This document shows positions 289 through 5,860 of a stretch of 6,275 nt of DNA, piece by piece (the stretch's first letter is position 1; every line of letters begins with the position of its first letter). Source of the stretch: a virus; the IMG/VR virus record IMGVR_UViG_3300000281_000051, positions 1-6,275 of that record, one strand, 5' to 3'. Both the position numbers and the translations under genes were made by a program. The notes below the pieces were generated by a model. The model saw only the letters and a program-made list of their open reading frames with translations. It searched no databases and was not told the origin of the DNA.

Positions 289-1836
289 ATGGATATTAAG
301 TGTTTACATTCCGTTATTCTTATCAACCCAGAAGCCCGTAAAAAGGCTCTGGATTTTGATCGTATTTACATTCGCGAACGTTGTCAATGCTGGATCATGG
401 AAACCTTTGTCCTTGAGCCCTGGCAATATTCCCCGAAAAAATGGTCTATTGGACTTTCGGATATAGATCATTGTTATCTCTTAAATTCTGAAACTGGTTA
501 TATGATTCCTCTTTATATCGCTGTCCCCTGTGGTTCTTGTATTATCTGTCGTAAACGTAAAGCTAATGCTTTGGCTACTCGTGCTATTATGGAGACAGAG
601 ACTGCTGGTTCTGCACCCCTTTTTATTACACTCACTTATAATCCCGAACACCTCCCTAAAAATGAACATGGTTATGAAACACTCCGAAAATTGGATTTTC
701 AATTGTTTTTTAAGCGTTTACGTTCTTTACTTGATAACCAAGCTATTCCTCATTCGCTGCGCTATCTCGCGTGTGGCGAGTATGGTTCTAAAACCAAAAG
801 ACCTCATTATCATTTACTTTTGTGGGGTTTTCCTGTTACGCATTTTAAGGATATACTTAAAGTCCAATCATTTATACAAAAAGCATGGTCTTACTTCCAG
901 GTTGACGAAAACGGTAAACGCATACCTTTCTATAGTAAATGTCGAACCTGTCCATTCAATCAATATAAGGAGCGTAACTCCTGCTCGGCTATTGCGCATC
1001 TATGCGCTGGCGCGCGTTTACGTTATCCGTCAGGAGCTTTTATTTATCGTCGGTATCCGATCGGATCGATAAAGGTTCTTCCTGCTAATTCTGGCGCACC
1101 TGCCTATATTACTAAATACATGGTTAAAGGTTCTAATGCTCCTCATTCTACCTGCGAGCCTCCTTTTCGTACCGCCTCTAATAGAGGCGGTGGTATTGGT
1201 TCTGCTTATATCCGTGCTCGGAAGGATGAAATTTTGAGTAACCCCTCTCTCGAAGCTCTTCCCGTTGTTGACCGTGTCACTGGTTCTGGTAAGCTCTTTT
1301 ATATGCCCATAGATTCGTGGGTAAAATCTACATTAATACCCTCTCCGTCATCCTATTTAAAATCTAAAGAATATGAGACAGTTCGTGATTTTTGTTACAC
1401 TTTTACATTATTTGAACAATGTGCCCAGCAGTTATATCGTCTTTGGCCTATGGATCGCTTTTTTGATGGTGAGTTGCAGTACTATACGGATGAGTTTTGT
1501 GACCCCTTTAAGCGTGAAAAATGGGCTGAGGCTTATGCTCATGTGCGCGAATATACTCCTGTTAATATACCTCACATTAATATCGGTAATTGGATAAAAT
1601 CTCGTGAGTATTTTAACGAATATATGTACACTTTAACAGAGCGTTTGGATATTTTAGCACGAAAAGTTTTGGAGATTGAAATACATGATTCGTATTTTCG
1701 CAGTCGAGAACAGTATTTGAAAACCCGTGTTGAGATATTTAAAAAGAAATATGGTGACAAAAAAACAAATCTTGGCGCTCTTGCAGAAAATATTGCCCTC
1801 TCCGTTGAGCGCAATAGATGGCGCGAATACTTTTAA
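289..1836 (+). CDS. VP4: Microviridae replication initiation protein, the rolling-circle HUH endonuclease (VP4 / gene A-like).
   Basis: 515-aa ORF. It has a CxxC Zn-finger-like motif (PCGSCIICRKRK, aa 80-91). RCR motif I is LFITLTY (nt 619-639). Motif II is the HUH block HYHLLLWG, preceded by ACGEYGSKTKRP (nt 805-828). Motif III is YITKYMVK (nt 1105-1128), which matches the phiX174 gene A active-site block YVAKYVNK with two Tyr four residues apart. Alternative in-frame starts are at 397 (METFVLE...) and 502. The true N-terminus is uncertain. Confidence 0.9.
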   Translation: MDIKCLHSVILINPEARKKALDFDRIYIRERCQCWIMETFVLEPWQYSPKKWSIGLSDIDHCYLLNSETGYMIPLYIAVPCGSCIICRKRKANALATRAIMETETAGSAPLFITLTYNPEHLPKNEHGYETLRKLDFQLFFKRLRSLLDNQAIPHSLRYLACGEYGSKTKRPHYHLLLWGFPVTHFKDILKVQSFIQKAWSYFQVDENGKRIPFYSKCRTCPFNQYKERNSCSAIAHLCAGARLRYPSGAFIYRRYPIGSIKVLPANSGAPAYITKYMVKGSNAPHSTCEPPFRTASNRGGGIGSAYIRARKDEILSNPSLEALPVVDRVTGSGKLFYMPIDSWVKSTLIPSPSSYLKSKEYETVRDFCYTFTLFEQCAQQLYRLWPMDRFFDGELQYYTDEFCDPFKREKWAEAYAHVREYTPVNIPHINIGNWIKSREYFNEYMYTLTERLDILARKVLEIEIHDSYFRSREQYLKTRVEIFKKKYGDKKTNLGALAENIALSVERNRWREYF

Positions 1837-2026
1837 CCTCGTAGTATATTATATTGTGTATGCGCTTGTCGTTATTTGTCTCTCGCTTTTGCTTTGGTTC
1901 TTGCCGTCTTGTACGGTAACCTTCTCGGTCCAGAAAAACAACAACAACTCCACTCAAAGTAGTGAGAGTAGTAGTAGTAGTTCTGTGGATTCTACGACTA
2001 TTTTTCAACCTCAAACATTTAAGTAA
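1751..2026 (+). CDS. Candidate overlapping gene for a 91-aa single-pass membrane protein. It has a basic amphipathic N-terminus, one TM helix (LVVYYIVYALVVICLSLLLWFLP) and a Ser/Asn-rich C-terminal tail. It may be a lysis or membrane protein.
   Basis: The +1 frame relative to Rep is open from 1727 (GTG) or 1751 (ATG) through the whole 189-nt Rep-VP1 spacer. It ends with TAA at 2024-2026, which overlaps the VP1 ATG (2026-2028) as TAATG, a configuration typical of translational coupling. A 189-nt non-coding gap would be out of character for this compact genome. An alternative GTG start at 1856 would give 56 aa. There is no RBS and no homology evidence. Confidence 0.3.
   Translation: MVTKKQILALLQKILPSPLSAIDGANTFNLVVYYIVYALVVICLSLLLWFLPSCTVTFSVQKNNNNSTQSSESSSSSSVDSTTIFQPQTFK
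1937..1981 (+). repeat. Tandem trinucleotide tracts: (AAC)4 at 1937-1948 and (AGT)2-GAG-(AGT)5 at 1958-1981.
   Basis: Read directly from the sequence. The repeats are in frame with the 1751..2026 ORF and encode NNNN and SSESSSSS. Confidence 0.9.
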
Positions 2027-4368
2027 TGGCAAGTGTTTTTAATAAAATCGGTGACATTAAAAATGATGTCAAGCGTAACAGTTTTGACTGGTCGCATGAT
2101 AACAATTTTACTACAGATTTAGGTCGCATCACTCCTGTTTTTACGGAGTTAGTGCCACCTAATAGTTCTATTCGCATTAAGCCAGAGTTTGGTCTTCGGT
2201 TTATGCCTATGATGTTTCCTATCCAAACAAAAATGAAAGCTTATCTGTCTTTTTATAAAGTCCCTTTGCGTACTTTGTGGAAGGATTATATGGATTTTAT
2301 TTCTGCTGATAATACAGAGGAATATCAGCCGCCTTTCATTAAGTTTAGCGGTAAGTCTTTCTCCGAAGGTGGTGCTTTATCTGAATCTGGTTTAGGCGAT
2401 TATATTGGTATGCCTGTTTCTAATATTGATACCAATTGGCAGGCTATAGATGTTGGCACTTTGGTTGATTCGACTAAAGGTGCTACTGCTATCTTTGGTT
2501 CTGCTACTAAACAGGGCAATTTACCCGAACTGCGTTTTTCTGTTATGGAGTACGTTAATGGTCCTTTCACTCCGCAGATTTCTTATTCTGACAATTCATG
2601 TTACATGCCTATTGGTAATGATTACTCTTTCTTTTCCCCTATCATTACTTTCTATTTTACTAAGGAGATGATAGATGCTGGTACTTTCCGTGTTAAATGG
2701 ACTGGTTCCTTGAATTTTGAGGGTACTTCTGCTCGTCAGGTTGCTGAACAGTTTGTTAATTTCACAAAGTGTTCTAAAACTCCTGTTATTCTTACTTTTA
2801 AGAAAAAACTAACTTCCACCCCTGTTGGTGATATTGGTCTACCGTTTGATGCTTCACAGAAGGTTTCATTCTTTGATCCTTTTTATGTTACTGACACGAA
2901 TTATCGTGTTAAATTTTCGTTTGAAGCTACTTTTAATATCGCTAATTTCCCCAATATGGGTATCAATGAAGAGGATGCTTTTAGTCTTGGCTTTACTGGT
3001 AGCATTTATAATATTTTCAATCTTGGTGGTAAACTCGGTTCTACGAATGTCAATTTGACATTCTCTTATAATACTTCTGGCGATTCGTCTTTGGTTTTCG
3101 CTCGTCCTGTTTCTGGTATTTCTACTCCTTATTATTCGGTTTATAATTCTACCGAAAAAGCTATTAAGGTGTCTGCTTATCCTTTCCGCGCGTATGAGGC
3201 TATATATAATGCTTATATTCGCAATACTCGCAATAATCCTTTTGTTCTTAATGGTAAAAAGACCTATAATCGCTGGATAACTACTGACGAAGGCGGTGTG
3301 GATTCTCTTACTCCTCTCGATCTTTTGTATGCTAATTGGCAATCGGACGCATATACTACCGCTCTCGCTGCTCCGCAACAAGGTGTTGCACCCCTTGTTG
3401 GTTTAACTACTTATGAAACTTCTTCTGTTAATGAAGCTGGTCATACGGTTACTACCGTTAATACTGCTATCGTTGACGAGGACGGTAATGCGTATAAAAT
3501 TGATTTTGAAAGTAATGGTGAGGCTCTTAAAGGTGTTAATTATACGCCTCTTAAAGCTGGTGAAGCTGTTAATATGCAGTCTCTCGTGTCTCCTGTTACT
3601 TCTGGTATTTCTATCAACGATTTTCGTAATGTTAATGCTTATCAGCGTTATTTGGAATTGAATCAGTTCCGCGGTTTTAGCTATAAGGAAATCATTGAGG
3701 GTCGTTTTGATGTTAATGTCCGTTATGATGCTTTGAATATGCCAGAATATCTTGGTGGTATTACTCGCGATATTATCGTTAATCCTATTACCCAAACTGT
3801 CGAAACTACTGATACTGGCTCGTACGTTGGCTCTCTTGGCTCTCAAGCTGGTCTCGCTACTTGTTTTGGTAATTCTGACGGTAGTATATCTGTGTTCTGT
3901 GACGAGGAAAGCATAGTAATGGGGATTATGTATGTGATGCCTATGCCTGTTTATGATAGCATTCTTCCTAAATGGTTGACTTATCGTGAACGTCTCGATT
4001 CTTTTAATCCCGAGTTTGATCACATTGGTTATCAGCCTATATACCTCAAAGAGTTGGCAGCTATTCAGGCTTTTGAATCTGGTAAGGATTTGAATACGGT
4101 TTTTGGTTACCAACGTCCTTGGTATGAATATGTTCAAAAGGTTGACCGCGCTCACGGTCTTTTCTTATCTTCTCTGCGTAACTTTATCATGTTCCGTAGT
4201 TTTGAGAACGCGCCCGAGCTTGGTGAGAGTTTTACTGTTATGCAGCCTGGTAGTGTCAATAATGTGTTCTCTGTCACTGAGGTTTCTGATAAAATTCTTG
4301 GTCAGATTCATTTTGATTGTACCGCGCAGTTACCTATTTCTCGAGTTGTTGTACCCCGTTTAGAGTAA
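2026..4368 (+). CDS. VP1: Microviridae major capsid protein (VP1 / F-like), 780 aa.
   Basis: The N-terminus MASVFNKIGDIKNDVKRNSFDWSHDNNFTTDLGRITPVF...LVPPNSSIRIKPE matches the conserved Microviridae VP1/F N-terminal pattern (S.F..s...ttT.d.G.l.P.....vLPgds). It is the longest ORF, with strong T3 codon bias. The ATG overlaps the upstream stop (TAATG). Only 6 nt separate it from the next gene. Confidence 0.93.
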   Translation: MASVFNKIGDIKNDVKRNSFDWSHDNNFTTDLGRITPVFTELVPPNSSIRIKPEFGLRFMPMMFPIQTKMKAYLSFYKVPLRTLWKDYMDFISADNTEEYQPPFIKFSGKSFSEGGALSESGLGDYIGMPVSNIDTNWQAIDVGTLVDSTKGATAIFGSATKQGNLPELRFSVMEYVNGPFTPQISYSDNSCYMPIGNDYSFFSPIITFYFTKEMIDAGTFRVKWTGSLNFEGTSARQVAEQFVNFTKCSKTPVILTFKKKLTSTPVGDIGLPFDASQKVSFFDPFYVTDTNYRVKFSFEATFNIANFPNMGINEEDAFSLGFTGSIYNIFNLGGKLGSTNVNLTFSYNTSGDSSLVFARPVSGISTPYYSVYNSTEKAIKVSAYPFRAYEAIYNAYIRNTRNNPFVLNGKKTYNRWITTDEGGVDSLTPLDLLYANWQSDAYTTALAAPQQGVAPLVGLTTYETSSVNEAGHTVTTVNTAIVDEDGNAYKIDFESNGEALKGVNYTPLKAGEAVNMQSLVSPVTSGISINDFRNVNAYQRYLELNQFRGFSYKEIIEGRFDVNVRYDALNMPEYLGGITRDIIVNPITQTVETTDTGSYVGSLGSQAGLATCFGNSDGSISVFCDEESIVMGIMYVMPMPVYDSILPKWLTYRERLDSFNPEFDHIGYQPIYLKELAAIQAFESGKDLNTVFGYQRPWYEYVQKVDRAHGLFLSSLRNFIMFRSFENAPELGESFTVMQPGSVNNVFSVTEVSDKILGQIHFDCTAQLPISRVVVPRLE

Positions 4369-4374
4369 TTTTTT

Positions 4375-4680
4375 ATGAAAGTTTTATCTCGTATTAATCC
4401 CAATGAGTCGTATCATCGCGTTGTCGTTGTGCGATCATCTTCTGATGAACCTGTTGTTTCTGGTCTCTCTGTCACTCCCTCGGATATTGAACGTCTTGCT
4501 CGTCAAGGTATTCCCGTGTCTGTTCCTAATGCCAATAGTTTTTATAACATTGATTCTGGTTTGGATGTTCCCCCGGAATTAAAGGTTGATGCGGATCGCA
4601 ATACTCTTTGGGAAACTTCCCAGGCTTCTAAAGCTCGTATTATGAAGGCGCGTAAGCGTGAACGCGATCATTTGACATAA
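4375..4680 (+). CDS. Small hypothetical protein (101 aa) between VP1 and VP2, with a basic C-terminus (KARIMKARKRERDHLT). It may be an accessory, scaffolding or DNA-binding protein.
   Basis: The ATG lies 6 nt after the VP1 stop, and TAA at 4678-4680. Codon usage matches the neighbouring structural genes. No homology could be checked from sequence alone. Confidence 0.55.
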   Translation: MKVLSRINPNESYHRVVVVRSSSDEPVVSGLSVTPSDIERLARQGIPVSVPNANSFYNIDSGLDVPPELKVDADRNTLWETSQASKARIMKARKRERDHLT

Positions 4681-4708
4681 TTTGTTCATATATCTAAAGT
4701 GTAATTTT

Positions 4709-5860
4709 ATGAGTGCTGCTGCTTTAACTGCCCTTTTGGGCGCTGGTACTGGTGGCGCAACTCTTTTAAATGCTGGTGCTGGCGTTGCTTCTGGTATCTT
4801 CGGTTCTATTGGAGCTGGTAGACGCCAAAAGCGCGCCATTGCTGCACAAAAAGAGGAGAACGCGCAAGCCCGTGCTTGGTCTGAAAAAATGGCTCGTTGG
4901 TATGCTAATAATGAGCGTGCCAATCTTGCTGATGAACGTGCGTATAATAATCCTTCTGCCGTTATGTCACGTTTAAAGGATGCTGGTTTAAATCCTGATC
5001 TTATATACGGTAATGGTGCTGCTGGTCTTGTTGATAGTAATGTTGCTGGTACTGCTCCTGCGTCCTCTGTTCCCCCTGCTGATGTTGCAGGTCCTATTAT
5101 GGCTACTCCTACCGCTATGGAGTCTTTGTTTCAAGGTGCTGCCTATGCGAAGACTCTCGCTGAGACGAATAATATTAAGGCTGATACTTCAAAAAAAGAA
5201 GGTGAGGTAACCTCTCTTAATATTGATAATTTTGTTAAGGCTGCCTCTTCTGACAATGCTATAAAGATGTCTGGCTTGGAAGTTCAGTTAACTAAGGCGC
5301 AGGCTGAATATACTGAAAGTCAGAAAAGTAAGTTGATTTCTGAAATTAATGATATTAACGAGCATGTTAATCTTCTCAAGGCTCAAATATCTGAAACTTG
5401 GTCTCGTACTGCGAATTTGGATGCTTCTACTATTGCTACTCGTACCGCTGCTATCCTTAATAACCGTCGTTTTGACCTCGAGTGTGAAGAGTTTGCACGT
5501 CGCGTACGTGAGACTGATGCGAAAGTTAATCTTTCCGAAGCGGAAGCAAAGAGTATCCTTGTAACCATGTATGCTAAAGTTAATAATATCGATACCGATA
5601 CCGCTTTGAAGCAAGCGAATATCCGTCTTACTGATGCCCAAAAGACACAAGTCGAACATTATACCAATAGCATAGATATTCATCGTGATGCCGCCGTCTT
5701 TAAGCTCCAACAGGATCAAAAGTATGATGATGCCCAGCGTATCGTTACCGTCGCTAATCAGGCTACCCAGTCATTGTATCACATTTCTCAGGTTGCCTCT
5801 GATTGGCTTCCGTCCCCTGGTGGCATTGCGAAAAAACTCCTGCGCTCTGGCAAGAAATAA
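4709..5860 (+). CDS. VP2: Microviridae minor capsid / DNA pilot protein (VP2 / H-like), 383 aa from ATG 4709. The ORF track extends it to a TTG at 4682.
   Basis: The N-terminus is Gly/Ala-rich and hydrophobic (AAALTALLGAGTGGATLLNAGAGVASGIFGSIGAG). The motif NPSAVMSRLKDAGLNPDLIYG resembles the conserved VP2 block (..RLKAAGLNP.L.YG) of gokushovirus-type pilot proteins. The C-terminal ~200 aa are heptad-like, K/E/Q/A-rich coiled coil, consistent with an H-protein-like DNA-translocating tube. Confidence 0.8.
   Translation: MSAAALTALLGAGTGGATLLNAGAGVASGIFGSIGAGRRQKRAIAAQKEENAQARAWSEKMARWYANNERANLADERAYNNPSAVMSRLKDAGLNPDLIYGNGAAGLVDSNVAGTAPASSVPPADVAGPIMATPTAMESLFQGAAYAKTLAETNNIKADTSKKEGEVTSLNIDNFVKAASSDNAIKMSGLEVQLTKAQAEYTESQKSKLISEINDINEHVNLLKAQISETWSRTANLDASTIATRTAAILNNRRFDLECEEFARRVRETDAKVNLSEAEAKSILVTMYAKVNNIDTDTALKQANIRLTDAQKTQVEHYTNSIDIHRDAAVFKLQQDQKYDDAQRIVTVANQATQSLYHISQVASDWLPSPGGIAKKLLRSGKK

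Follow-up and report, generated by a model that had tools for sequence, protein, structure and literature searches.

Microviruses of the type examined here rank with the most abundant phages in the vertebrate gut, and the question raised by this locus is how they leave their hosts. Their exit from Bacteroides and Prevotella can be set beside just one mechanism that has been worked out, that of phiX174 E (PMC3394797, PMC3091885). The Alpavirinae have no E homologue (PMC3091885) and, as the first-pass annotation of this DNA also stated, a lysis gene is not known for the virus group (PMC3394797, PMC3091885). That annotation drew attention to a reading frame in a 6,275 nt stretch of viral DNA (here, the window) and described it as a hidden gene, possibly for E-like lysis, between the genes for Rep and VP1. 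Here, we ask whether the frame is a gene, to what its product is related, and what that product may do.

Coding status of the frame between Rep and VP1

Besides the ORF in question, the window contains Rep, VP1, a 101-aa ORF in the VP3 position, VP2 and two small ORFs. The upstream gene, for the replication initiator Rep (VP4), lies at 289–1836 on the plus strand (Pfam REP_ORF2-G2P, 8e-16; PHROG 942, 3e-56) and ends in a stop codon at 1834–1836. Downstream on the same strand is the gene of VP1, the major capsid protein (2026–4368; Pfam Phage_F, 5e-50; PHROG 514, 1e-88). An ORF scan placed the intervening ORF at 1751–2026 on the plus strand, stop codon included, with an ATG inside the 3′ end of the Rep gene and a 91-aa product, MVTKKQILALLQKILPSPLSAIDGANTFNLVVYYIVYALVVICLSLLLWFLPSCTVTFSVQKNNNNSTQSSESSSSSSVDSTTIFQPQTFK. 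The first-pass annotation had given it this extent, and its further observations, that the 189 nt Rep-VP1 spacer (1837–2025) is open only in the frame of this ORF and that the ORF meets VP1 in a TAATG stop-start overlap (2024–2028, plus strand), were also borne out by the sequence. The final A of the ORF stop codon TAA (2024–2026) is the first base of the VP1 ATG (2026–2028). At its 5′ end, 86 of the 276 nt (1751–1836; 31% of the gene) overprint the final 28 codons and the stop codon of Rep in the +1 frame, and this part encodes the basic, amphipathic N-region MVTKKQILALLQKILPSPLSAIDGANTF. A longer version of the frame would run from a GTG at 1727 to 2026 on the plus strand. As the relative L011 has a stop codon between this GTG and the ATG at 1751, the GTG is not a conserved start; the ATG is retained in all 12 genomes compared.

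Openness and length are weak evidence for a gene here, because the window contains longer ORFs that are not genes, one of 180 aa on the plus strand (530–1072) and one of 250 aa on the minus strand (3403–4155). At the base composition of the window, 63 open codons are expected by chance with P=0.023 in a given frame and P=0.07 in any of the three, so that the estimate of about 5% made in the first-pass annotation was a fair one. The reading in which the spacer is a non-coding regulatory or origin region, open by chance in one frame, can draw on both of these facts, and it is refuted by the pattern of substitutions and by the existence of a homologous family.

The first-pass annotation had proposed a comparison of related genomes among its checks, and the frame is open in 12/12 of them. 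The ORF product is 90–95% identical in the 11 relatives, whose Rep proteins are 76–96% identical. Variable sites in the spacer fall at codon positions 1, 2 and 3 in numbers of 14, 9 and 40 (12 genomes), and in the non-overlapping part of the gene (1838–2020) pN/pS is 0.135 in the ORF frame, the values for the remaining frames being 2.39 and 6.35. Serines encoded by the spacer are retained through switches between AGY and TCN codons. Synonymous diversity in Rep reaches its minimum exactly over the overlap (pS of 0.097 vs 0.345 over all of Rep). More than 1,000 homologous ORFs occupy the same position in other sequences (see below). The ORF at 1751–2026 is a real protein-coding gene under purifying selection.

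Two further ORFs were considered as sister overprinted genes and rejected. The ORF at 530–1072, which is in the +1 frame within Rep, contains stop codons in 6/11 relatives, and the ORF at 1373–1597 has two breaks in L011 and an ambiguous pN/pS of 0.57. No match to the Bacteroides-type promoter motif TTTG-N17-23-TAnnTTTG was found within the window, and scans for sigma-70 promoters and terminators gave no signal above background near the ORF at 1751–2026.

A family encoded directly upstream of VP1

Profile searches place the ORF product in a large, unnamed family encoded directly before VP1 in Alpavirinae-like microviruses. At 90% identity, the searches returned lists of 1274 and 114 clusters, or approximately 1,300–1,400 if their mutual overlap, which was not checked, is allowed for. 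None of these clusters is named, and the majority are on contigs of 6.0–6.7 kb. At 50% identity there are 129 clusters, all of 44–150 aa, with no larger homologues among them. The family HMM matched the window ORF with E=4.8e-26, though the window sequence was itself part of the alignment from which it was built (A4), as were the two relatives closest to it.

Members sit directly upstream of VP1 in the prophages of Bacteroides as well as elsewhere, and the same-strand arrangement ahead of VP1 was found in 44/45 loci examined. The family HMM found a member in 44 loci besides the window. Between the stop codon of the gene and the start of VP1 there are 0–17 nt in close relatives and distant members alike, a distance that exceeds 7 nt in just one case. 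Nearly the whole clade carries the gene. Prophages that carry it are present in the chromosome of Bacteroides sp. f07 and in a Bacteroides metagenome-assembled genome, and in another prophage context the adjacent genes are those of a Bat operon. The family is thus associated with Bacteroides.

The gene is not hidden everywhere, to use the word of the first-pass annotation: MG945130 lists it as a hypothetical protein, and so do many further microvirus records in GenBank. A member is present in 72 such records and, where the stretch is annotated, it is labelled 'hypothetical protein'. Several gene callers shorten the gene to 60–83 aa or skip it. The family is defined here as the pre-VP1 small lipoprotein family, and genome annotation pipelines should call its gene. 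Literature searches turned up no earlier account of a lysis gene, or of any lipoprotein, in Alpavirinae or gokushoviruses.

The N-terminus of the window protein, M-x-T-x-x-Q-I, resembles that of the family, MK[ILV]T.xQ[WI]. After a Cys-Thr junction the family consensus is C-T-x-S-L-S-V-x-K-N-N...V-D-S-T-x-I-N, and C-T-x-S/T-x-S-V-x-K-N-N and V-D-S-T are common to the window ORF and the family. Comparison of the window protein, together with 20 members of the family, with Pfam, PHROGs, NCBIfam, PADLOC and PDB sequences returned nothing significant. Sub-threshold matches in NCBIfam mostly concerned lipoprotein families, at their N-termini, and one was to a 'smalltalk' protein. One entry, P0007, has the appearance of a VP1 fragment fused to a family protein's tail. 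It was rejected as a natural fusion and treated as a chimeric or defective assembly; it is on a scrambled 1.5 kb contig with repeated VP1 segments.

Predicted export and lipidation

The basic N-terminus, hydrophobic helix and Ser/Asn-rich tail described in the first-pass annotation are all evident in the translation. Before the hydrophobic core, K4, K5 and K13 are set against D23, for a net charge of +2. This n-region is followed by an uncharged, putative h-region, LVVYYIVYALVVICLSLLLWF (residues 30–50), which together with L51-P52-S53 of the putative lipobox is encoded by 1838–1909. Cys54 (TGT, 1910–1912), which is invariant in the family, is the predicted site of cleavage and lipidation. The predicted mature peptide of 38 residues, CTVTFSVQKNNNNSTQSSESSSSSSVDSTTIFQPQTFK (1910–2023), is the conserved and presumably periplasmic effector part, and in it D80-S81-T82 (1988–1996; all on the plus strand) matches the O-glycosylation sequon of Bacteroidota. 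The helix had been taken for a single transmembrane (TM) segment. A hydrophobic helix is present, but as it ends in a lipobox-like [S/A/G]-Cys, a lipoprotein signal peptide is the likelier reading, ahead of a permanent TM anchor. Most likely, then, it is the exported tail that does the work of the protein.

Support for this prediction is found throughout the family. Cys-Thr is invariant in 240/240 retrieved proteins, and the Cys is present in all 115 anchored representatives of the 50% identity clusters. The residue at −1 is Ser, Ala or Gly in 240/240 retrieved proteins and in 103 of the 115 representatives, in which the residue at −3 is mostly Val, Ala, Leu or Ile. A strict PROSITE-type lipobox, applied as [LVI]-[ASTVI..]-[GAS]-Cys, is present in 149/240 family proteins. 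Many members have the Cys at positions 16–30, and textbook short signal peptides with the Cys at 16–26 occur in many representatives, examples being MNKFAIILSTLLVASC and MKKRINYVVLSLVAIIAASC, each followed by Thr. We regard it as probable that the family consists of small exported lipoproteins.

The window protein is a less regular member. In L51-P52-S53-C54 the residues at −3 and −1 conform, and the strict rule fails because of the Pro at −2, a position that is Asp in 81/240 family members. Owing to an N-terminal insertion, PSPLSAIDGANTFN, the Cys in the window clade is at position 54, outside the usual range of approximately 15–35 (the family median is 31). A V/L-x-S sequence ahead of the Cys would also be compatible with cleavage by signal peptidase I (SPase I). 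That the window member itself is an exported lipoprotein is still the better supposition, held with rather less assurance than for the family as a whole.

Mean pairwise identity across the family is 0.22 in the hydrophobic segment and 0.41 in the part after the junction, and the mature peptide, 35–42 residues long in the family, is more conserved than Rep or VP1. From the positive-inside rule, the conserved tail is predicted to be periplasmic. AlphaFold2, run on the family alignment, gave a pLDDT of 59.5, with helices at residues 4–14 and 25–50 and a disordered tail. The sequon D-(S/T)-(A/L/V/I/M/T) directs O-glycosylation of non-cytoplasmic proteins in Bacteroidota (PMC12871550). The corresponding D-[ST]-[AILVMT] is present in 240/240 retrieved family proteins; among representatives it was found in 86%, 24–28 residues past the Cys, vs 16% of shuffled peptides. 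A J/VP8-like DNA-packaging protein, which the position ahead of the capsid gene might suggest, was rejected, as the protein lacks a basic character and contains a hydrophobic core of 20 residues.

Candidate functions of the predicted lipoprotein

The best explanation overall, to which we give a little less than even confidence, is that the gene encodes the precursor of a small exported lipoprotein most likely used for host lysis or virion release. Translation would start at the ATG at 1751, inside the 3′ end of Rep, and the basic amphipathic N-region and hydrophobic core (residues ~30–50) would act as a Sec/SPase II-type signal peptide. Cys54 would be lipidated and become the first residue of the 38-residue Ser/Asn/Thr-rich peptide, a step to be read with particular caution given the Pro at −2. 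By its predicted topology, the lipopeptide would be anchored at the periplasmic side of the Bacteroidota envelope and probably O-glycosylated at Ser81 of the sequon. The conserved exported tail, rather than the hydrophobic segment, would then act upon a conserved envelope component, with host lysis or virion release as the likeliest outcome. Working from the periplasmic side, the protein would fill the role that falls to phiX174 E, or to the M15 peptidase in other microviruses.

A lysis role is plausible because the gene is near-universal in a clade whose genomes have no peptidase, and because the slot between Rep and VP1 holds lysis genes elsewhere. In other microvirus families, accessory genes associated with lysis lie between VP1 and VP4 (PMC9239249), and, the present gene apart, the M15 peptidase is the one lysis candidate that has been put forward for these virus groups (PMC3394797). 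An M15 peptidase was found in none of the 44 family-bearing loci, and Pfam and PHROGs searches detected no muralytic domain in the main ORFs of the window. The Bacteroides microvirus phiHBP1, on the other hand, has no family member and carries an M15 peptidase, a ~134-aa enzyme of a recognisable fold family, in the same slot; this anti-correlation involves a single peptidase-bearing genome and a set of loci picked by VP1 similarity. Two considerations count against a lysis role. Single-gene lysis proteins usually evolve fast, and the degree to which the mature peptide is conserved is unusual for that class. Further, a lipopeptide has no evident way of breaching peptidoglycan alone. The gene is nonetheless plausible as the best candidate for the lysis function of Bacteroides-type microviruses, though the assignment of a lysis or release function to the predicted lipoprotein is tentative. 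A fuller proposal is possible but more doubtful. By it, the lysis gene that is missing from Bacteroides-infecting (Alpavirinae-like) microviruses would be this family, with an O-glycosylated, lipoprotein-type single-gene effector acting from the periplasmic face on a conserved target in the Bacteroidota envelope. As the virus group lacks a known lysis gene, lysis was a reasonable guess on the part of the first-pass annotation.

The part of that annotation for which support was not found is the likening to E. Its model was of an uncleaved single-pass membrane protein acting through its TM helix, either by an E-like block of the membrane step in peptidoglycan precursor synthesis or as a small holin or pinholin. 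phiX174 E (PF04517, Microvir_lysis) is likewise a 91-aa microvirus protein with one hydrophobic helix, overprinted in the +1 frame in a genome without an endolysin, and the basic N-terminus and hydrophobic helix of ~23–26 residues in the window protein would suit such a mode of action, as would the partial overprinting. The L-P-S-C of the window clade and the Cys at position 54 are also poor SPase II features, so that the helix might remain in the membrane. However, there is no sequence relation to E; PF04517 was not matched by the window protein (E<=0.1) or by 20 family members (E<=10). The whole of E lies within gene D; the pre-VP1 gene overlaps its neighbour over less than a third of its length. 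Conservation is also reversed. In E, the N-terminal TM helix is functional and conserved and the C-terminus is basic and cytoplasmic, while in the family it is the tail that is conserved; this tail is neutral, Ser/Asn-rich and predicted to be periplasmic, and the helix before it shows the lowest conservation in the protein and runs into a lipobox-Cys. A TM-acting protein leaves unexplained both the invariant junction of a small residue with Cys-Thr and the short lipoprotein signal peptides of other members, and a holin would have no endolysin to serve. We consider this mode of action quite improbable.

The main rival to a lysis role is superinfection exclusion or receptor masking in the style of T5 Llp or phi80/N15 Cor, in which the lipopeptide would bind the envelope receptor of the phage, shielding lysogens and infected cells from reinfection and progeny from inactivation on cell debris. 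Llp and Cor belong to the class of molecule predicted here, small phage-encoded lipoproteins, and adjoin the gene for a receptor-binding protein, as llp does in T5; the pre-VP1 gene abuts that for VP1, the receptor-binding capsid protein. Exclusion genes pay off in prophages, and many members of the family are found there. One member weakly matched PHROG 8545, 'superinfection exclusion Sie-like' (E=0.0046), but this was one of 20 members and is not significant over 20 x 38,880 comparisons, and no significant sequence match to Llp or Cor was found. The mature peptide does not change in step with the likely receptor-binding surface, as it is >90% identical in genomes in which the variable region of VP1 drops to ~61–74% identity, and it is still recognisable where VP1 identity is 40–55%. 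Exclusion genes are, moreover, usually sporadic accessories, unlike this one. An exclusion function is on balance unlikely. Some other envelope role, as a membrane-anchored assembly or egress helper or as a modulator of the host surface (capsule, outer membrane vesicles or lipoprotein traffic) that helps the prophage, would fit the strong conservation, the apparent co-expression with VP1 and the temperate lifestyle in Bacteroides, and is left unconstrained by the absence of functional homology. Positive evidence for such a role is absent, a 6 kb genome rarely retains so conserved a gene outside its core cycle, and a separate lysis gene, of which none is visible, would still be required. We would place it among the unlikely readings too.

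Among known systems, the closest analogy in kind to the predicted lipoprotein may be the small colicin-release (lysis) lipoproteins, which offer a possible model of envelope destabilisation, or 'quasi-lysis'. ColE1 Kil and the bacteriocin release protein (BRP) of pCloDF13 (PF02402) are likewise very small lipoproteins with a signal peptide, a lipobox and a short Ser/Thr-rich mature peptide, which in BRPs is ~28–33 residues long, and they too allow a small mobile replicon to export its product from a Gram-negative cell without an endolysin. PF02402 was not among the Pfam matches of 20 family members at E<=10, a search in which the HMMER filters may drop very weak matches. The hosts of the colicin plasmids are enterobacteria and those of the microviruses are Bacteroidota. 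The cargo of the latter is a virion of ~25–30 nm that requires a breach of the peptidoglycan and, unlike in the colicin lysis proteins, conservation is centred on the mature peptide, in which there is a glycosylation sequon. The o-spanins (λ Rz1-type) are also small phage lipoproteins that are often overprinted on a neighbouring gene and act late on the envelope. However, spanins require an inner-membrane partner (Rz) and act after the holin-endolysin step, and no Rz partner, holin or endolysin was found in the 6.3 kb window genome; the family tail is Ser/Asn-rich rather than Pro-rich.

What began as a single odd frame is a defined family, with >1,000 clusters, a fixed place ahead of VP1, a lipobox-Cys-Thr junction and a sequon-bearing tail, and it provides a concrete, testable candidate for a microvirus release function. 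Known single-gene lysis inhibitors target MurA, MraY and MurJ. Should the predicted lipoprotein be a lysis effector, it would represent a new mechanistic class beside these. What it targets would then be a point of weakness conserved in the Bacteroidota envelope, and a lead to a new antibacterial target in a dominant phylum of the gut; should it be an exclusion factor, the receptor is what it would indicate. A Bacteroides microvirus has now been isolated (PMC13064476). With that isolate, a gene-bearing prophage in an assembled Bacteroides chromosome and the possibility of knockouts that are silent in Rep, testing is feasible.

A conserved gene between Rep and VP1

The window is a complete microvirus genome of 6,275 nt, and the nearest GenBank records, MG945130 and MG945725, are Microviridae from dog faeces that share 84–87% nucleotide identity with it. 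It encodes Rep/VP4 (289–1836, + strand; Pfam REP_ORF2-G2P), the VP1 capsid protein (2026–4368, + strand; Phage_F), the VP2 pilot protein (4682–5860) and a few further small ORFs. Two of the latter, a 76 aa ORF (56–286, + strand) and a 101 aa ORF (4375–4680, + strand), have no Pfam or PHROG match, and in the two nearest GenBank genomes the corresponding positions carry hypothetical-protein annotations. The 101 aa ORF occupies the site of the VP3-like scaffold predicted by Krupovic and Forterre (PMC3091885).

The sequence features that the first-pass annotation described at the Rep-VP1 junction are all present. The frame is open throughout from a GTG at 1727, through an ATG at 1751, to a TAA at 2024–2026 (+ strand), and the final A of this stop doubles as the first base of the VP1 ATG (TAATG). 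It is the only frame open across the 189 nt Rep-VP1 spacer. The encoded protein begins with a basic N-terminus and continues through a hydrophobic stretch into a tail rich in Ser and Asn; AlphaFold2, run with the family alignment, predicted helices at residues 4–14 and 25–50 followed by a disordered tail. The earlier estimate of how often a spacer would be open by chance was about right (P = 0.023 when the frame is specified and 0.07 when any frame counts). Openness alone is weak evidence in this genome, because longer ORFs occur in alternative frames. These include 530–1072 (+ strand; 180 aa), in the +1 frame inside Rep, which contains stops in 6 of 11 relatives, and 3403–4155, 2866–3381 and 5288–5719 on the − strand; the four are 143–250 aa long, so length is no proof of coding here.

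Comparison with 11 related genomes, in which Rep is 76–96% identical, was more informative. The small-protein frame is open in all 11, and the protein is 90–95% identical. In the part of the gene that does not overlap Rep, variable sites fall 14, 9 and 40 times at codon positions 1, 2 and 3, and pN/pS (Nei-Gojobori) is 0.135 in its own frame versus 2.39 and 6.35 in the alternative frames. The serine run is retained through switches between AGY and TCN codons. Over the 28 overlapped codons, the pS of Rep is 0.097 compared with 0.345 for Rep overall, the minimum among all segments scanned along Rep and the pattern that dual coding predicts. On this comparative evidence the small-protein ORF is a real gene, and the alternative that it is not a gene is refuted. 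In L011, the most distant of the 11 relatives, the upstream GTG is separated from the ATG by a stop, which makes the ATG at 1751 the conserved start. The A-rich run TAAAAAGAAAT precedes it (1740–1750), with A at −3 and −6. In Bacteroidota, A at these positions in an A-rich run forms a Kozak-like start context that replaces the Shine-Dalgarno site. As the run also encodes the conserved KKK of Rep, it is not independent evidence. The ORF has previously been predicted, as a hypothetical protein only: MG945130 labels it 'similar to hypothetical protein', MG945725 leaves it unannotated, and other gene callers shorten it to 60–83 aa.

A very hydrophobic 74 aa ORF inside Rep (1373–1597, + strand), in the same +1 frame as the small-protein gene, is open in all 11 close relatives yet has two stops in L011. 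The coinciding Rep segment has a pS of 0.124, below its pN of 0.132, and the own-frame pN/pS of the ORF is an ambiguous 0.57. It is probably not a gene.

Spread of the family and its hosts

Nearly all of the more distant genomes compared (Rep 33–51% and VP1 39–60% identical) also have a small ORF before VP1, with its stop 0–17 nt from the start of VP1, a distance that exceeds 7 nt in only one case. The products align with the window protein, examples being MKVTPNQWIEIVKLISTFVIGIITTLFVQSC continued by TLSLSVAKNNNNATQKTEQTSTSSVDSTHVNLYR, and MKLTNEQIKAIITAICTLITTVSAIVLSTAC continued by TLSLSISKNNSNSTQKTEQTSTSSVDSTHININPKNF. Profile searches of a 5.8-billion-protein collection returned 1274 and 114 clusters at 90% identity, two lists that may overlap, all unnamed and without Pfam domains and most on contigs of 6.0–6.7 kb. 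When 1.84 billion representatives were scanned exhaustively with HMMER, 129 clusters at 50% identity emerged, all of 44–150 aa, and no larger or cellular homologue. In GenBank, 72 microvirus records from lemur, rodent, tortoise, human, dog and chicken gut carry a family member, always called 'hypothetical protein' where the stretch is annotated. We found no description of the family, its lipoprotein character or any function in the searchable literature, Pfam, PHROGs or NCBIfam.

Two Bacteroides assemblies, a MAG and the 3.7 Mb chromosome contig of Bacteroides sp. f07, contain prophages in which the gene immediately precedes VP1, and a further gene-bearing prophage adjoins Bat-operon-type genes. 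The Bacteroides prophages are consistent with the published Alpavirinae host range of Bacteroides and Prevotella (PMC9239249, PMC3091885).

Two records have unusual arrangements. In MG945256 (L013, marked 'UNVERIFIED'), a tandem duplication (1400–2310) takes in the small lipoprotein gene together with the start of VP1, inside a 751 nt Rep-VP1 interval; it could be an assembly artefact or real. The JGI contig carrying family protein P0007 contains a 155 aa ORF (444–911) in which a VP1 variable-loop segment runs into the C-terminal 27 residues of the small protein. As this 1.5 kb contig appears scrambled, with repeated VP1 segments, we attribute the fusion to chimeric assembly or a defective genome.

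Probable lipoprotein architecture

All 240 retrieved family proteins contain an invariant Cys-Thr, preceded by S, A or G in every case. A strict PROSITE-type lipobox rule is passed by 149 of the 240; among the failures, the −2 residue is Asp in 81, Pro in 6 (the clade of the window) and His in 2. Many representatives of the 50% clusters have textbook short lipoprotein signal peptides, such as MNKFAIILSTLLVASC, MKKRINYVVLSLVAIIAASC and MIRWIIAGLIAMLVAAC, each followed by T. In representatives aligned at the Cys, the preceding 18 residues were hydrophobic (mean Kyte-Doolittle value 1.8) with an average identity of only 22%, and the 14 residues from the Cys onwards were 41% identical, with the consensus C-T-x-S-L-S-V-x-K-N-N-x-N-S. 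Another conserved block, 24–28 residues past the Cys, reads [V/A]-D-S-[T/A/L]-x-[I/V]-N. The motif D-[ST]-[AILVMT] is found in 86% of representatives versus 16% of shuffled peptides, and in 240/240 of the closer family set; it fits the sequon of the general O-glycosylation system of Bacteroidota, which modifies non-cytoplasmic proteins (PMC12871550). Sub-threshold NCBIfam matches of family members are mostly to the N-termini of lipoprotein families, where signal peptide and lipobox lie.

A variable hydrophobic segment, an invariant junction of small residue and Cys, and a conserved polar tail bearing the sequon together make the pattern of a secreted lipoprotein. The family thus most likely consists of secreted lipoproteins with the mature part as the effector, though the pathway is less secure for the window's clade, which has an L-P-S-C lipobox with the Cys at position 54 owing to an N-terminal insertion. 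Sec would export the precursor, Cys54 would be lipidated and the signal peptide cut off, leaving a 38-residue lipopeptide on the periplasmic side that would probably be O-glycosylated at Ser81. Surface lipoproteins of Bacteroidota have acidic residues just after the Cys, and the small protein has none there. In one subfamily (P0228 and P0234, residues 7–32), the signal-peptide part QWIEIVKLISTFIIGVITTLSVQSC resembles the 29-residue Bacteroidota 'smalltalk protein' of NCBIfam below threshold (E = 0.0025; 17.6 bits, with the cut-off at 24.7), which may reflect either ancestry or mere composition.

Candidate roles

The reading that we favour, tentatively and at somewhat less than an even chance, is lysis or virion release. 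The gene is near-universal in the VP1 clade of the window, and three loci without a family-HMM match have another small lipoprotein or membrane protein in the Rep-VP1 region: a different canonical lipoprotein, MKEKIKEFLIENWKSVALVTGAATLLLISSC followed by GSTW..., in L036 (717–899), a 50 aa single-helix protein in L047 (4919–5071) and a 52 aa lipoprotein with C-T and D-S-L in L016 (1560–1718). These suggest functional replacement at this position. No ORF of the window contains a muralytic domain, and none of the 44 family-bearing loci has an M15 peptidase. In phiHBP1, an isolated Bacteroides microvirus that lacks the family, an M15 peptidase fills the Rep-to-VP1 slot. In other microvirus families the VP4-VP1 interval holds lysis-associated accessory genes (PMC9239249), Alpavirinae lack an E homologue (PMC3091885), and phiX174 is the sole microvirus with a known lysis mechanism (PMC3394797). 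The nearest analogues in kind are the small colicin-release lipoproteins, which have no sequence relation to the family. Against lysis, a gene of that kind would not usually be so strongly conserved, and a lipopeptide has no obvious way through peptidoglycan. The product is a candidate single-gene lysis effector in the form of a small phage-encoded lipoprotein, and such an effector in Bacteroides microviruses is a directly testable possibility.

The first-pass annotation had proposed an E-like single-TM protein. Such a transmembrane model, or a holin-like one, would suit the poor lipobox of the window's clade, but it does not match the conservation pattern of the family, in which many members also have short canonical signal peptides. 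A Llp/Cor-like lipoprotein for superinfection exclusion or receptor masking fits in molecular class, adjacency to VP1 and temperate lifestyle. However, the gene is not sporadic, and the peptide shows no co-variation with VP1, which is highly variable. Relative to L001–L010, the VP1 variable region (2400–3300; codons ~125–425) is strongly divergent, with best-segment identity as low as 61–74% while Rep and the small lipoprotein are >90% identical, and overall VP1 identity is 71% in L002. Such divergence points to recombination or to diversifying selection acting on the capsid surface.
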